64,000 bases of DNA. It comes from Eledone cirrhosa (Eukaryota). The notes beneath the pieces are model-generated. The model had not been told where the DNA came from and did not search any database. It worked only from the letters and a program-made list of their open reading frames with translations. Within the stretch, counting starts at the first letter, position 1. Each line of letters begins with the position of its first letter. A program made the position numbers and the translations under genes. The stretch lies in contig OZ024741.1 of NCBI GenBank assembly GCA_964016885.1, positions 299,832,001 through 299,896,000 of the forward strand. Direction: 5' to 3'. Positions 15,910 through 62,536 of this stretch are shown in pieces.

Positions 15910-16205
15910 TAATATTAAAATACAAATATTAATAAAATAGAGGTTCTTTTTATCAATTACATTTTATTATACATATTTCAGATGTACAACAGTACGTCCT
16001 CATCAGACACAATATAATGATACATTATATGATACTGAGATGTTAAGTGGTTAAGATTAAATATTAACCATTTAACATCTCAGGGTATGTGATGTATCAT
16101 TATATTTTGTCTGATGAGGACGTACTGTTGTACATCTGAAATATGTATAATAAAATGTAATTGATAAAAAGAACATCTATTTTATTAATATTTGTATTTT
16201 AATAT

Positions 16206-23844: not shown

Positions 23845-23976
23845 GTATTCTTCCCATATGAAAATAATGTAGTATTCTCTAGAATAAGTATGACAGGTTC
23901 TAACTGGTACTCGCCTCTTCGTGGTATTCTCGATAATATTTCAAAGCCCATATTTCCAGGTCAGCTGGAATATTAG
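23845..23976 (+). CDS. Candidate host exon, VFFPYENNVVFSRISMTGSNWYSPLRGILDNISKPIFPGQLEY* (3' end uncertain)
   Basis: tttctataatttgtag| acceptor, phase 0 matching the previous exon, 43 open codons. Alternative donors at ~23887 and ~23959. Confidence 0.45.
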   Translation, partial: VFFPYENNVVFSRISMTGSNWYSPLRGILDNISKPIFPGQLEY

Positions 23977-24238
23977 GGTCAAGGATTTCTCTATCAAAGC
24001 TAATTAACATAGATTTGTTTTGCGTAGACGAGACAGAAAATCAATATGATTTAGAATGAAAGAGAATGTGTTGGTATAAATGGATGTGAAAATGATGACA
24101 ATAAACTTAGACGGTTAGTAGGATATGTTGCACTAGCCATGATATTGCTAAATTTGTTGATCTTTCTGTTCGTAGTAAATCTAAATCTTCATTGATTTGT
24201 TCTTTCATTGCACTTTTGATTTCCGTTGAATATATATA

Positions 24239-29067: not shown

Positions 29068-30335
29068 TGTGTGTCTGTGTGTGTATATATGTGTGTGTGT
29101 GGGAGTATGGTTAGCATGTTAAGATGGAGAGACAATATATATATATTGTTTGTGTGTGTGTGTGTAGGAAAATGATTCTATTAGTAGAAATGGGGGAGGG
29201 AGCTGTGTGTGTGTAGGAATGTTATGTGTGTGTGTGGGTATTATGTGTGTGTGTGGGAGTATGGTTAGCATTTTAAGTATATATTTTAAGTATATATTCT
29301 TTTGTGTGTGTGTAGGAAAATGATTCCGTTAGTAGAAATGGGGGGGGCGGTTATGTGTATGTGGGGTGTGCGGTTAGCATGTTAATGTGATAGACTATTA
29401 ACGTATGTTAAGGTTTATTTAGTTCTGGTTTTTATTTTCTTAATTAGAAGGTGTTAAGTGTGTATGTATGTGTCTGTTTGGATGGTTAGCATGTTATGGT
29501 GTTGACATAATGTATATTAAACTATATTTAATGCTGGTCTATATTTTTGAATAAACATATTTTCCCTATTTATTCGTATTTGTTCTGTTGTATTGTCAGA
29601 GCAAAGATAAATGGGAAGACTTGGAATTTGTCTGTCTTATTACTTGCGCATATATCTAGATGTGCACTAACAATGACAAGATCCAACCACGAGACAGATA
29701 TCACTATATCTGTCTCGTGGTTGGATCTTGTAATTGTTGGCGATGAACTGTAATTCTATTTCTGAGTGTGAGTTTAGTTCTTCCTATATAATCTTCATTG
29801 CATCCTTTACATTTGATGGCATGAAGTAGATTTTTGATGAACAAGTGAAGTGATTTTTTAGAGCAAAATTTTGTCCTGATTGAAATGTATACGTGTTGCC
29901 TTCAATGAGGTGAGTACAGGTTCCACAATTAGAGCGACCACATCTTTTGACAGTTGGTTTTGGGTTTGTGGTAGGTAATTTGGCATTGGTGAATAATGTT
30001 TTTAGTGATTTCGCTTGTCTTTCGCTTTTAATTATTTTGTGTGTTTCAAGGACTTTTTTCATTCTTGGGTCTTGTTTCAATAGTGGGATGTTCTTGTGAA
30101 TAGTGTTGTAAGCTTCCGCATTTCTCCGGTTGTGTGTTGAGATATATGATAGAATATTGGACGTACCTTGAATTTGTTTCTGTTTACGTAATTCATCAAT
30201 AGCCCTTTCTATTCCATTATTTATATACCATCATGTATTAGTAATGGTGGGTCCTGTCTTTCCTTTAATTCTTGAAGTCTTTTATTTCGCGTTTCATAAT
30301 TGGAGACAATTGTGAAAATTCTTCTTGCATCAACC
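28538..30335 (-). mobile_element. Penelope-like element (Neptune-type Cys linker), 5'-truncated, with 3' UTR and HHR
   Basis: ORF 29784-30080 DPRMKKVLETHKIIKSERQAKSLK...KRCGRSNCGTC...HFTCSS followed by frameshifted GIY-YIG sequence. The 3' UTR ends in the family A HHR tail. Confidence 0.85.
28675..28716 (-). ncRNA. Hammerhead motif, U3-A8 variant, family A copy 3 (in PLE 3' UTR)
   Basis: Reverse complement: TACTT-TTGAAAA-C CAG aaaaa CTG C-GAAA-CCGG-TA^AAGG. Confidence 0.55.
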
Positions 30336-36503: not shown

Positions 36504-43969
<7,466 letters not shown>

Positions 43970-45589: not shown

Positions 45590-47030
45590 CATTTAGGCTC
45601 TGCTCTGCTTCCCCTTTATAGATAGGGCATATCCCGGAGGAAAAGACCTACAGACGCATAAAACATTCTCAGAAACAGGAAAATCCTTATGAAACGAAGA
45701 ACAAAGATCTCAGATCTCTGAAATGCAGAACAGATAAACGAGAAGGAAATCCATTTGAAATAGGTAGTGCTGGAAATTGAAAATGCACTCAAACTTTCCC
45801 ATGAAAAGGAGAGCGCTGGGAAAAAACATTGCCATAGAAATTATACAAAGAAACCCTAACGCCTTCTTTGAATTTGCAAAATACACTGCTTCGGTGCACT
45901 GCAAAATACACTACTTAATGTGGATAGTCAAGTGATACGTGAGATATTGAATTTACAGTACAATTAACACATGCAAATAACAAAGCCAGAGGAATTCTTT
46001 GATTTCACAGCAGTACACGGAGAAACCATCAACCACAGATATAACACGGAAAGTTATAATATCAGCCATAGAGGAAATCAGAGCAAACTCTGCTGCTGAA
46101 CCTGATGAATTTCCAGTAACCTTCCTAAACACATTCAAATGTACCTTAGCGAGACCACTGAAGATCCTCTTCAAAAGTTTTCTAGCTAAGGGTAAACTAC
46201 CCAGAGAGGTAAACGAAGGCATAATATGCCCTATCCATAGAGGGGGAAGCAGAGCAGCGGCTAAAAAGTACAAGCCAATCTCCCTGGCGTCATATGTCAG
46301 TAGGGTTATTGAATGAATCAGAATGAAAATGACCGCTTCCCTCTAGGATAATGATAATACCGAGCATGAGTTTCGCCCTGGAAGAAAGCTGCCTTACCCA
46401 GCATTTACAACACTAAAACTGGGTACTGAAACGGCTGTTGGACCAATTGGAGCAATCAAATATGGATGGGATATATCTTGACTATACAAATTTGCTGAGG
46501 ACAACACCATGCACTTTAATGCTGGAAAATTTCAAGCCCTAAAATATCAACCTGCTAACACAAGGACAGTCCAACACAGCTATGGAGGAGCAGGAGGAAT
46601 CGAATTCCACGTGTCGAAATCGATTTTAACCACAAAGCCTGAAGCAATCCAACGAAGATACACCAAGAGGTTTGCCACAATGAGAGAGATGAGCTACTGG
46701 GAAAGGCTAAAGGAGCTAAATCGCTACTCCTTGGAACGAAAGCGGGACTAACATCAGACTTTGGCATTGAGACCTGGACCCAGTCACGAATAAGACGTCA
46801 ATGTTTAGTGCCAAAGTTCCCAACTTTCACATCTAGAGTTATGAGCAGATACGGCAATACCCTGGAATTAAATACCCCCAACTCTTTAATAAGCTGTACG
46901 TGGATGTTTTTATAAAACATCTTGACACTCTGCTACCCAAGAACCCAGCTGAACCCACAGCAGGGAATGAATGTAATCTAAGAACAACAACAACGAACAC
47001 GCTTCTACATCAATGCCACCCAACGCAGGC
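45590..47030 (+). mobile_element. CR1-clade LINE RT fragment with internal deletions
   Basis: NSAAEPDEFP..LARPLKILF..GIICPIHRGGSR..KYKPISLASYVSRVIE..FRPGR..IYLDY; MHFNAGKFQAL..EAIQRRYTKRF..SYWERLKELNRYSLE. Confidence 0.85.
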
Positions 47031-47117
47031 TTGATACAGAAAGTGAAGCAACTAGGGTTGTGTCGCAGCATGACATCAATTAAAAGAGTAAAGGAGTATA
47101 TATATATAGAATAGATT

Positions 47118-47175
<58 letters not shown>

Positions 47176-47228
47176 AATGTATTCTTGGCGCGATCACTTT
47201 GGAAAATCAATTGTCTAAATTTGAGGTA

Positions 47229-47305
47229 ACTTCCTGAAGAATCCGAAGCTCTAGATATCCAATGTTTTCGGATATCTTAAAATGCGGATGAAACCATGTA
47301 GAGGT
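47229..47305 (+). ncRNA. Type I hammerhead ribozyme, intact core
   Basis: ACTTC-CTGAAGA-ATCCG..AGATATCC..GGATATCT..CGGAT-GAAA-C CAT G-TA^GAGGT. Confidence 0.8.
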
Positions 47306-47890
47306 AATTAAATATATACACTTTTCTTCTAGTTTATTTTAAACCTAATTATGTTTAGTTGACTGTATATCTGGGCGATTCATACATGCTGTCGAAATAT
47401 TCGATAAACGATCCGTCGTAACCGCCGCGAAGGGGCCGCTTTCGGTTATTTGTCGGAGATTTCTTTATAGAAGCCTTTATTCTTATAGCTTGGTCTAATT
47501 GATTTTTATATGGTTAATTATGCTAACTGGGAGAGGAAACGGTATATATTTTATCTGGTGATTATATAGACATGTTTTATGATATATAGCTCTGATTATT
47601 TAATTCATTAATTCTTCATTGAGCCACAAAGTGACCCGTTGCAAAACACATATACATTTATGACTTTATATATATATATATGTAAACCTTTATATGTAAT
47701 AATCTCCCGTTAGGTTAAGATACAATTTTGACTGTATTGGGCTGCGCTTTCTAGCAAAAAACCTACCAGCGGTAAGCAATTAATCACATCCTTTCTAACT
47801 TGACCACTGCCACGTCACGATTCTTAGCCATGTTTGAATGTATTCTTGGCGTGATCACTTTGGAAAATCAATTGTCTAAATTTGAGCTAA

Positions 47891-47966
47891 CTTCCTGAAG
47901 AATCCGAAGCTCTAGATATCCAATGTTATCGGATATCTTAAAAGGCGGATGAAACCATGGTAGAGG
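47891..47966 (+). ncRNA. Type I hammerhead ribozyme, intact core
   Basis: CTTC-CTGAAGA-ATCCG...CGGAT-GAAA-CCATGG-TA^GAGG; stem III is the palindrome ACCATGGT. Confidence 0.8.
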
Positions 47967-48242
47967 AAATTAAATATATACACTTTTCTTCTAGTTTATT
48001 TAACACCTAATTCTGTTTAGTTGACTGTATATCTGGTCGATTCATACATGATGTCGAAATATTCGATAAATGATCCGGCGTAACCGCCGCGAAGGGGCTG
48101 CTTTCGGTTATTTGTCGGGGATTTCTTCATAGGAGCCTTTATTCTTATAGCTTGGTCTAATTTATTTTTTATATGGTTAATTATGCTAATTGGGAGAGGA
48201 AACGGTATATATTTTATCTGGTGATTCTATAGACATGTTTTA

Positions 48243-48333
<91 letters not shown>

Positions 48334-59648: not shown

Positions 59649-59719
<71 letters not shown>

Positions 59720-59721
<2 letters not shown>

Positions 59722-62170
59722 ACAAGGAGAAAGAGACGATTTTATGAGGAAGAAACATTTTTTTTTTCCTTTTTTCTCTCTTTCTCTCTTTTTTGACGGT
59801 TAGAAAATGATTAAAACGAAATGTTCTACTTTGTGTGAAGTGTTAAGGTATTCGGTAATTTATTTATTATTTAACAATGGCATGTATTTATCTATTTATA
59901 TATTTAATTATTGTCTATTACCGGTTTCTGCATTTATTTGCATTATCAAATGATAATGAAATGCATTAGTATGGTGTCGCACGTGTTAAACAGAAGGTGC
60001 AGATTGAATAATGTTATATACAAACAAGGTTTAAGAAGTGAAAAGAAAAAAGAAAAAGGAAAACAAAACGTGCATACTGTGGAACGTAAAAGTCAATGTG
60101 GAAGAAAAGTTAATGTTATTTACAAGCACAGTCATTGAAGTTAAGCAGTTCAAAATGTGTTAATATCGCAAGAGTGCTTAGTTGAACCGTGGTTCCGTGA
60201 AGGAGGCAAATGGTGGACTCTGGTTTGATATGATTTCTTTTTTTAGAGAGTTAATATGCAGGGGAAGCAATTCTTGCTGGGTGATATTTAATTTATTTAA
60301 GAAAAAGGATTATGTAGGTTGTGAGGGAGGTAACTCTTGTAAATGTTTGATGGTTTGTTGCAGTTTTAGATTGGTCCGATATTTAGGGCATTGAGTACTG
60401 GTTGAAATTTATTAATGAAATGTGTTTCGTTATTGGTGCGTTGGATGAAAGTAGCGTTGTCTATGAATTTGTAAATGGGGAAAATTTTAAAGTTTGGAAG
60501 TTGGTTGAGAGCACAATTGGCGATATGTTCACTAAATACAATATTTCTGTATTCCTGTATTTTAATTTGTGATTTATGGACGGTCATACGTTGACGGGTG
60601 CTGTTTTTTGTCTGTCCTATGTAATGCTCTTGACAACCTGAGCAAGTCAAAACATAGATAAGGTTTTCAGATGCACATGTAAAGTTCTGTTTAACTGTGA
60701 AACGTTGTCCTTGTTTAAAATAGAATGTTGAACCTTCTATTAGAATTATGCATATGCCACAGTTGGGACTTCCGCAGTTTGTTACTGTAGGGTTTATTGT
60801 GAGGGTTTGTTGGATTTTGGCTTGTGTGAGGATGTTTTTTTATGGATTTGGGTTGTCTTTTGCTCTTTATGATGTTGTGTGTTTGGAGGATATTGTTCAT
60901 TCTTGGGTCTCTTTTTAGTAAAGGAATGTTCTGGAGGATGGTGTCGAATTCCTCATTGTTGAAGGGGTTGTGTGTGGAGATGTATGGTAGAGTTTTTTGT
61001 TGCGGTTCACTCCTGGGTTTGGGGTGTCTGAGTTCCTGGATGTCTAGTTTTAGGGCACGTTGGAATCCATTGATGATTAGGGATGGTGGGTAGTTTCTGC
61101 TGATAAGTGTGTTTTTTAATTCTTCTAGTCGTGTGTAACATGTGTATTTATCTGAAACTATTGTGCAGATCCTTCTGGCTATGTTGTAAGGAATTGCCAT
61201 TTTGGTGTGTTTAGGGTGGTACGAGTTGAATGGAAGGTATTGTTTGGAGTCTGTGGGTTTGTAGTATATGTCTGTTTCTATTCTGTTGCTTGTTTTCTTG
61301 ATGAGGATGTCGAGCAAAGGGAGTTGTTCACGGCTGTAATCCATTGTGAATTGTAAGTTAATGTTGAGTTCATTCAGAAGGGTTTTGAACTCAAACCGTC
61401 TATCGATACTTTCATGCCAGATGATGAAGCAGTCGTCCAGATATCTCTTCCAGTTCTTTTCTATGTGTTGGTAGAAGTCGTCGCCGTATTTGTCTAGAAC
61501 TTAGCGGTAGATAATGGTTTCCAAATATCCCATGACAAGGTTGGCGTATGAGGGGCCACTTTCGTGCCCATGGCAGTCCCAGATTTCTGTCTGTAGTATT
61601 TGGCATTGAATTCGAAGAAATTGTTTTCCAAGATGAATTTGAGTCCCTCCAACACACATTCTTTAGGGATGCGCTGTGGAAGTTCACTAGGGAAATTTTC
61701 CAACCAGAATTGTATTGCCTCTATACCTAGGTTGTGTGGGATATTGGAATATAAATTGATGATATCAAAGGTTACTAGTAGCGTATGTTCGTTATTGAGT
61801 GTTGTTGGGAGGTGGTTGAGCATGTCAGGGTCGTCCCTTATGAAGCTTTTCATATGTTTTAGGAAAGGTTTAAGCAGAATATCTAGGAGGTTGCTTAGGC
61901 AATGGGTTTCACATGTCGTGCCTGCTATTATGGGTCTTAATTTAAGGTCATCAGGAGGGGCTATATTGATGTAAACGTCTGTGGCTTGCTTGCAGGCCCT
62001 GCCTATTACTTCGCTTTTGTGTGTCTTGGGGATACCGTAGAAGAGGCTGGTTCTGCTTTTGAAATTGGTGATGTAGTTGTATTCCTTGTCTGTAAGGCCT
62101 TCTTTGTAAAGGGTTGTTAGGGATTTTATGGTTCTCATTATTTTCTGTTGTGTGTAGTATTGGGCCTTTT
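59720..62170 (-). mobile_element. Penelope-like retroelement (Neptune-type): frameshifted RT, Cys linker, GIY-YIG and 3' UTR
   Basis: FYGIPKTHK..LRPII..TFDIINLYSNIP..FEFNAKYYRQKSGTAMGTKVAP; RYLDDCFIIW; LLDILI..DIYYKPTD; CGSPNCGIC; CSGCQEHYIGQT..RMTVH. Confidence 0.93.
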
Positions 62171-62536
62171 CAAGACAACCAATCTTGCCTCAAGTGGGAC
62201 AATTCCCGTCCAGACGCATGCTAGCGTGGGAGATGGACGTTAAACGATGATGATGATGATGATGATATATATATATAGTAATAATAATAAATTTTAATAA
62301 ATATATATATATATATATATTCTCAACAAAATGCCCTCTCTAACTTAATTGGATATTGACTAGTAATAGAAACGGCCATCTGTAGCACATTTGTTGAAAT
62401 TCGAACCCGGACAGATTTTTCGAATAAAACGTTTTTTTTTCGGATCTCGGAATTTCCTGAGTGTTTATTCTTACAATTAAAAGGCAATTAATGAGAACGA
62501 TACGGACTAACATCGACGATTTTGGGGGGTAGTTTA

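Follow-up and report, generated by a model that had tools for sequence, protein, structure and literature searches.

The question raised by this locus is whether a short non-coding repeat carrying two hammerhead ribozyme motifs is a mobile element in its own right and, if so, from what kind of RNA its insertions were copied. The locus lies in a 64,000-nt stretch of Eledone cirrhosa DNA that was analyzed as a whole (the window). An earlier note on this DNA had proposed a well-preserved candidate circular-RNA retrozyme. We put at roughly 0.6 the probability that the element belongs to a family of non-coding 660-nt hammerhead repeats mobilized in trans by Penelope-like elements (PLEs) via a unit-length circular RNA, a reading built on comparisons of genomic sequences. 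The answer bears on the role of hammerheads in PLEs and on whether PLE tandems arise from circular templates. As the family is short, non-coding and abundant, with young subfamilies, the question is cheap to test.

Organization of the element in the window

The element extends from 47173 to 48251 on the + strand and consists of a full 661-nt unit followed by 0.63 unit (m1-661, then m1-414). In this numbering, m1 is position 47175, the unit is m1-661, and the predicted cut falls between m126 and m127. Positions 47834-48251 copy 47173-47588 with 95% identity over 418 nt, and the architecture is thus that of a non-coding direct repeat of 1.6 units between TA tracts. The longest ATG-started frames have 22 aa on the + strand and 37 aa on the − strand, which bears out the description of an ORF-less partial tandem flanked by (TA)n; ARAGORN detected no tRNA.

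The (TA)n target tract on the 5′ side (47097-47172, no strand) is broken by a short inverted copy of the element's first bases. This 13-nt piece (47108-47120, − strand), noticed before, matches 47173-47185 at 12 of 13 positions and closes a hairpin spanning the TA tract. It is not a normal second arm, since TA separates it from the element and it has no fixed-point end. It is likely to be a fold-back product within the palindromic TA tract, differing from the long inverted arms of other copies. On the 3′ side, (TA)n and then (TG)n (48245-48333, no strand) directly follow the m414 end.

Both hammerheads are of type I and lie on the + strand, at 47223-47305 and 47884-47967. Cuts are predicted after 47300 and 47962, and the monomer predicted between them (47301-47962, +) measures 662 nt, exactly as the earlier note had it. 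The motifs that it named were likewise found, with CUGAAGA at 47234 and 47895, GAAA at 47290 and 47951, and GUA ending at 47300 and 47962. In the upstream hammerhead, stem I pairs 47229-47233 with 47301-47305, the core is at 47234-47240 with GAAA at 47290, and the pseudoknot strand 47223-47227 has its partner at 47247-47251. In the downstream one, the pseudoknot joins 47884-47888 to 47908-47912, the core is at 47895-47901, and the palindromic sequence is ACCAUGGU. The other parts of the unit are also on the + strand. They are UGUCU (47212-47216), the 5′ strand of a long-range helix predicted in a consensus fold with AGACA at 47568-47572; a long rod-like stem-loop (47307-47550), conserved across subfamilies with mostly one-sided changes; a 110-nt "tail" between the fixed 3′ ends m414 and m524 (47588-47698); and a conserved block with promoter-like words before the unit start (47735-47835), a candidate internal promoter.

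This is the only copy of the family in the window. Other hammerhead-like motifs there belong to other elements, and a loose core scan of the window gave one further weak core, at 16111. Between TA tracts at 36539-43863 lies another, distinct array, made up of 14.2 units of 513 bp that are 95% alike. Its units have CTGATGA then GGGAC, with the complementary GTTCCC-GAAA ~280 nt on, and its 3′ end resembles that of a PLE in the window. The array may be a second non-coding PLE dependant, its hammerhead-like motif being only putative. The PLE (59717-62189, −) is a broken member of an abundant family; it retains pieces of the reverse transcriptase (RT) and of GIY-YIG, and it has a 3′ repeat of its own, a TA tract and a small UUGAUAA...GAAACCGGUA hammerhead-like motif at 59949. 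Further PLE frame remnants are found at 29520-30328 (−) and 23847-24111 (−), and PLE-type small hammerhead motifs of another family at 2879 (+) and 28711 (−). Just upstream of the element (~45900-46760, +) is a putative decayed LINE-like reverse transcriptase remnant, its frames having been read by eye.

An abundant family with divergent subfamilies

The exact hammerhead-core pattern had 2,057 matches in the genome (G000) and the exact tail 30-mer 1,169, with none for either reversed control; both counts are lower bounds. The contrast between 2,057 and 0 indicates that the motif is not due to chance. A search of this 3.0-Gb genome with the unit gave 127 matches in the 39 best of 4,278 candidates. 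The flanks of different copies are unrelated; the family is multi-copy and dispersed. The copy-number check suggested by the earlier note thus yielded at least 2,057 exact cores, and its view of a retrozyme-kind element, non-coding, hammerhead-bearing and present as a multi-copy tandem, is borne out. Three sequencing runs of unknown kind (contigs, one sample) contain the family and the common extra G at 47297.

Subfamilies at ~76% and ~71% identity are collinear with the window unit over its whole length. The 31 natural full units, 635-690 nt long, fell into 6 clusters that are 12-30% apart, and the hammerhead region gave 5 to 7 clusters of at least 3 members, up to 40% apart. Collinearity of such divergent subfamilies over the whole 635-690-nt unit implies that the non-coding unit has been inherited over a long time. 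In the block at m560-661, GCCATTT occurs in 199/218 pieces and TTGGCG[CG]G in 191/218. The words in this block resemble CCAAT, YY1 and E2F sites, and the block is a candidate promoter inside the unit.

We analyzed 356 loci, leaving out of the arm counts long arrays and the segmental duplicates of one locus (L018). In the latter region (L018-L030, G000 C12:17.02-17.48 Mb), one element occurs at least 8 times with ~60-kb spacing inside a large segmental tandem.

A conserved hammerhead with a predicted pseudoknot

The motif has the CUGANGA, GAAA and NUH elements and the stems I-III of a type I hammerhead. The full 12-nt core was present in 140/172 copies picked without the hammerhead pattern. Among loci chosen in the same way, all 12 core positions and all 6 palindrome positions were invariant across 5 subfamilies, as against 148/292 other columns (p = 5e-4), and the free position N7 varied among subfamilies. 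This pattern of invariance indicates that the hammerhead core is under selection.

Stem II consists of 5 bp, a 7x7 internal loop and then 8 bp. The 5-bp stem and 8-bp helix described earlier were found again, with the loop between them, and stem I is paired over 5 bp in the upstream motif and 4 bp in the downstream one. In 28 aligned motifs, 93.5% of the cells of the named structure were paired, and 9/25 pairs showed two-sided change. None of 500 shuffles scored as high and slid partners gave 25-43%, in controls that ignore relatedness. At the first position of stem II, A-U or a mismatch is frequent, and 10/28 rows as aligned are unpaired there.

A further helix is predicted, in which GAGCU, immediately preceding stem I on its 5′ side, pairs with AGCUC in the stem II internal loop. 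In the 28-motif alignment, 96% of its cells were paired and 2/5 pairs had two-sided change, with C-G/U-A and U-A/G-C/A-U variants. GAG/CUC was found in 173/192 distinct hammerheads. Among those 173, the fourth pair formed in 168, as C-G, U-A or U-G, and the fifth in 132; together these two pairs amounted to 300/346, compared with at most 266 when shuffled. With stems I and II formed, this helix is predicted to be a pseudoknot of the kind that speeds cleavage, an effect described for hammerhead pseudoknots in PMC3088659. It could also form as a nested, inactive alternative fold, and one consensus fold preferred it over stem I.

Stem III has two pairs and the palindrome ACCAUGGU. As PMC4209133 reports that the form with a small palindromic stem III works as a dimer, stem III is predicted by analogy to be suited to dimer cleavage. 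Self-pairing of the palindrome was computed at -13.2 kcal/mol for the family and -8.2 for the two motifs of the window. The earlier description did not include the pseudoknot, the palindromic stem III or the PLE-type ends described below, all three of which were found here.

In a consensus fold of 17 copies, the long rod lies 3′ of the predicted cut, and a 5-bp helix is formed by UGUCU, which precedes the ribozyme, and AGACA, close upstream of the m414 end; it has one compensatory change, in 2/17 rows of one subfamily. The minimum-energy folds of both window hammerheads lacked the three-way junction (z -2.0 and -1.4). The window monomer folded no better than shuffles (z -0.5 and -0.9), and a subfamily-B unit did fold better (z -3.3). 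No Rfam hammerhead matched over the window at the gathering score or over the element at E up to 10, where the Rfam matches were TA-hairpin noise only. The 50-nt stem II probably falls outside the Rfam hammerhead models.

Copies with PLE-type ends and targets

Of the 282 distinct arms lying clear of the locus edges, 232 have a fixed-point end, at m414 in 144 cases and at m524, 110 nt from it, in 88; the remaining 50 end at other points. TA came next after 168/179 fixed ends in an earlier arm set. Two head-to-head arms, each with a fixed-point end, are present in 63/137 elements. The 5′ truncation of copies is variable, and the 3′ ends are fixed with the tail being optional. The coding PLEs of the same genome also have partial tandems, inverted arms, two ends and a TA target. 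Partial tandems, inverted 5′ copies and a 30-40-bp tail are described for PLEs in PMC8557442, and the PLE tail marks two internal reverse-transcription starts (PMC11167929). By analogy, we infer that m414 and m524 are reverse-transcription start points and, because fixed ends, inverted arms and the TA target are common to PLEs, that a PLE protein made the insertions. The family is therefore likely to be copied in trans by PLE machinery.

These ends bear on whether the repeat is instead a satellite, spread at the DNA level by recombination with a decayed or incidental hammerhead. Long arrays do exist, such as ~45 tandem subfamily-B units with alternating variants at G000 C1:92,985,600-93,016,000 (L335, L336, L348, L349) and an 8-unit array in L148. 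The array near C1:92.99 Mb nevertheless retains an inverted head and the m414 end, the hammerhead core is under selection, and most copies are dispersed and 5′-truncated, with fixed 3′ ends in TA. Long arrays probably expanded after insertion, and the ~45-unit array is likely to be one insertion grown into a satellite. For the dispersed copies, the satellite explanation is refuted by the pattern of ends and it holds only for secondary array expansion; as an account of the family it is extremely improbable. The subfamily-B array in L148 (3479-9397) is headed by subfamily-A arms, and its middle units are identical over the compared segment; it is a chimeric or nested insertion.

Search for a coding parent or helper

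We then considered that the copies might have no independent life and derive from a coding PLE with this hammerhead in its repeat, either as truncated ends or as products of recurrent deletion. Their ends and target are of PLE type, and coding PLEs are abundant in the genome, 150 having been scored of 10,597 GIY-YIG candidates. Joins between arms and PLE frames were sought with 11 PLE protein queries from the same genome, 245 arms having at least 1 kb of upstream sequence. None of the 269 arms of at least 100 nt was linked to a same-strand frame without an intervening TA tract, and the eight arm-match pairs within 700 nt were all TA-tract neighbors or on opposite strands. The 5′ ends of these arms were joined to more unit sequence in 166 cases and free in 101, and the free ends had no common upstream continuation and no credible frame. 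A frame with RT and GIY-YIG between repeats was not found in the element or in the inspected arms. The 3′ regions of 47 GIY-YIG loci gave only TA-rich matches to the unit, and the coding parent that the earlier note had suggested looking for did not appear, as none of the PLE loci examined matched the unit in sequence.

The absence of any join in 269 arms argues that the family is not a truncated PLE end; the refuting outcome named in the earlier note, with all homologs attached to coding PLEs, was not observed. The lack of a common continuation at the 101 free ends, the dissimilarity of the unit to the 3′ regions of the PLE loci examined and the collinearity of subfamilies over the whole unit also speak against truncation. 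With a few hundred of several thousand copies inspected and 11 PLE queries used, there may still be a rare parent among the other copies or in a PLE clade outside the queries. The truncated-PLE explanation is nonetheless largely refuted, and we consider it very improbable.

Three leads to a parent were discarded. The PLE of the window, at 60369-62189, has its own repeat and a small hammerhead, unlike the unit. In L141, a PLE and a subfamily-C copy are neighbors that were inserted separately into one TA tract. The 13 short-stem CCAUGG motifs outside the family are in other repeats or due to chance. Repeats of the former sort (L264, L273, L279; L269, L270, L285; L281) have a CCAUGG-loop hammerhead with a shorter stem II and are unrelated in sequence to the 660-nt unit.

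A young PLE family (L181, L182, L184, L185) has intact ~900-aa frames, 3.1-kb tandem units and inverted pairs. The terminal AAC(C/G)TTTATA is common to the m524 end and the first end of this 900-aa family, a weak resemblance; among the 30 ends in that comparison, AACGTTTATA occurred in 28/30 and AAACCTTTATA in 2/30. This family is a candidate helper.

Each insertion repeats one unit sequence

Adjacent units had 164 minor variants in common, compared with a permutation mean of 28 (22 pairs; maximum 56 of 5,000), and inverted arms had 83, compared with 11 in permutations (13 pairs). Inheritance of tandems as linear blocks would let the first unit diverge from the second, and units would then cluster according to position. 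Differences between loci were position-concordant in 130 cases and discordant in 136 after terminal and TA-tract columns were dropped; before this removal the figures were 175 and 45, two terminal columns at the TA junction accounting for 129 of the 175. In 30/51 arms, a unit was most closely related to its own neighbor. Variant sharing, the position test and nearest neighbors together indicate that every insertion is a repetition of a single unit sequence. Part of the variant sharing within insertions may be due to gene conversion. Nearest-neighbor distance on a 266-nt segment was uninformative, as the subfamilies are star-like, and the shared-variant tests were used instead.

The cut site was read through in 63/65 arms not selected for the hammerhead. 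The other 2 stop 3-6 nt past the site, approximately what the mean stop rate predicts. An earlier count of 2 stops in 259 arms was biased because the loci had been picked by their hammerhead, and the test was redone on unselected arms. A conserved cutter with a site crossed without a scar fits a re-ligated circle, and it fits homology-guided switching too. On balance, the patterns in these copies make a re-ligated, unit-length RNA circle the probable template. Mussel, coral and axolotl elements of the retrozyme kind give circles, according to PMC7229834.

The template could otherwise be a linear, uncut transcript with terminal redundancy, with the RT switching to the homologous position of that RNA or of a sister molecule. 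The hammerhead would then be kept for another step, such as trimming of read-through RNA, late cleavage or protein binding. Homology-guided switching would also homogenize units and leave no scar, and the two-pair stem III is weak. The only PLE system studied in vitro, that of the anole, mainly uses uncut RNA as its template; hammerhead mutants still insert, and none of the reads ends at the cut site (PMC11167929). The L148 insertion joins subfamily A and B arms, so that switching between RNAs, or nested insertion, does occur. The 5′ ends are also mildly enriched at m613-662 (26 compared with 12.6 expected, uncorrected), which hints at linear transcripts starting there, but the excess is broad rather than a point and most arms run through. 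Preservation of the core, the palindrome and the covarying pseudoknot across 40% divergence argues for real cleavage, and if cleavage is efficient, the read-through in 63/65 arms needs re-ligated RNA. We thus regard a linear template as rather unlikely.

Several observations weigh against the circle. The minimum-energy folds of the window hammerheads miss the junction, the window monomer does not fold better than its shuffles, stem II frequently starts with an A-U pair or a mismatch, and there is the 5′-end excess at m613-662. To these are added the uncut template of the anole PLE and the Xenopus retrozyme dimers, 8/9 of which did not cleave in vitro according to the preprint (10.64898/2026.07.22.740005).

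Proposed cycle and status of the window copy

In the circular-RNA reading, which we retain, a source copy with more than one unit would be transcribed, possibly from the candidate promoter inside the unit. Two hammerheads would pair via the ACCAUGGU palindrome and then cut, the pseudoknot holding stems I and II in the active pose. Because cutting would need this pairing, only transcripts with two motifs would release the monomer, which a host ligase would close into a circle. The PLE protein would nick (TA)n, reverse transcription would start at m414 or m524, and the RT would run round the circle to yield 0.1 to ~3 units. Priming from both DNA ends would yield head-to-head arms.

We tentatively envisage a bolder version, possible though less probable than the reading above. 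The family would be a long-lived, independent lineage of viroid-like RNA circles of 660 nt. Its hammerhead would be pseudoknotted and dimer-gated, a conserved rod would accompany it, and a long-range helix would link the ribozyme to the start of reverse transcription. The lineage would have parasitized a Penelope protein while diverging by 40%, no coding parent being left, and its thousands of insertions would record the PLE RT rolling round ribozyme-made circles and priming from both ends of a cut TA tract.

The window copy was compared with its subfamily. All core nucleotides are kept in both motifs, and in this respect they are intact as claimed earlier, but each carries private lesions. 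The upstream motif lacks one G of the CCAUGG stem III loop, which in subfamily A is CCAUGG in 59/64 parsed copies and CCAUG in 1, and in its pseudoknot strand G replaces C at 47226. In the downstream motif, A for U at 47967 reduces stem I from 5 to 4 bp. Measured against the majority base in each column of its subfamily, the copy differs by 3-4.5%, with 8 and 12 changes over ~266 nt. The m560-661 block is absent before the first hammerhead and present only between the two motifs, and a two-motif RNA from this copy would therefore need read-through from the flank. The idea of a well-preserved source copy is thus not supported. With lesions in both hammerheads, the copy is probably not an active source; it is an ordinary worn member of the family, likely an aged, inactive product of the proposed cycle. 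Its two units share 5 minor variants with each other and at most 1 with two other copies starting at the same base. That m1 might be a fixed 5′ end was rejected, since the exact junction occurs twice in the genome and three such copies have no shared derived variants.

Comparison with known systems

On the features examined, the family is an animal non-LTR retrozyme, a class that is itself already known. As in those retrozymes (PMC7229834; 10.64898/2026.07.22.740005), its tandem units are non-coding and low in G+C, each has one type I hammerhead, copies range from dimers to long arrays, and they co-occur with PLEs. PLE-driven copying from circles has been proposed for animal retrozymes (Cervera and de la Pena 2020, PMC7229834; Li, Clavereau and Pollet 2026 preprint, 10.64898/2026.07.22.740005). 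The ~660-nt unit is within the 51-972 bp range of retrozymes (10.64898/2026.07.22.740005) and exceeds the invertebrate retrozyme circles found so far, of 170-400 nt. Instead of the loop 1-loop 2 contact that is usual, the hammerhead here has a covarying predicted pseudoknot, and its stem II is long and interrupted. A sequence link to a PLE repeat exists for 24/57 Xenopus retrozyme families, and none was found here. A plant LTR retrozyme (type III, true LTRs, PBS, PPT, 4-bp duplication) was rejected on account of the type I order, the permuted tandem and the lack of a discernible duplication.

The likeness to endonuclease-bearing PLEs (PMC4209133, PMC8557442, PMC11167929) comprises partial tandems, 5′ truncation, an inverted 5′ arm, an optional tail that reflects two internal starts, targets that are AT-rich or (TA)n, and a small palindromic stem III. 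Unlike those PLEs, the family has no reading frame, its tail is 110 nt instead of 30-40 nt, and its hammerhead is larger and more structured than the minimal PLE pLTR motifs. The proposal of circular templates for PLE tandems dates from 2014 (PMC4209133). Non-autonomous Chlamys elements such as MRC1, which have pLTRs (PMC8557442), are similarly non-coding PLE dependants with head-to-tail multi-copy insertions. At the 3′ end these elements are similar to their autonomous partners, and canonical hammerheads are absent from most Chlamys, whereas the family here has a conserved hammerhead and no clear partner. Compared with the pseudoknotted hammerheads of Perreault et al. 2011 (PMC3088659), the partner strand is predicted here to lie in an internal loop of the long stem II and to pair with the 5′ flank of stem I. 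We found no account of the family or of a pseudoknotted retrozyme hammerhead in the literature searches, and the supplements of PMC7229834, PMC4209133 and the preprint may show similar motifs.

PLE-type ends, not described for retrozymes in the accessible texts, are explicit here, with two starts 110 nt apart, inverted arms and a TA target. Together, unit homogeneity, the lack of a stop at the cut site, the two fixed starts and the twin arms tie retrozymes to PLE chemistry by footprint, beyond co-occurrence.
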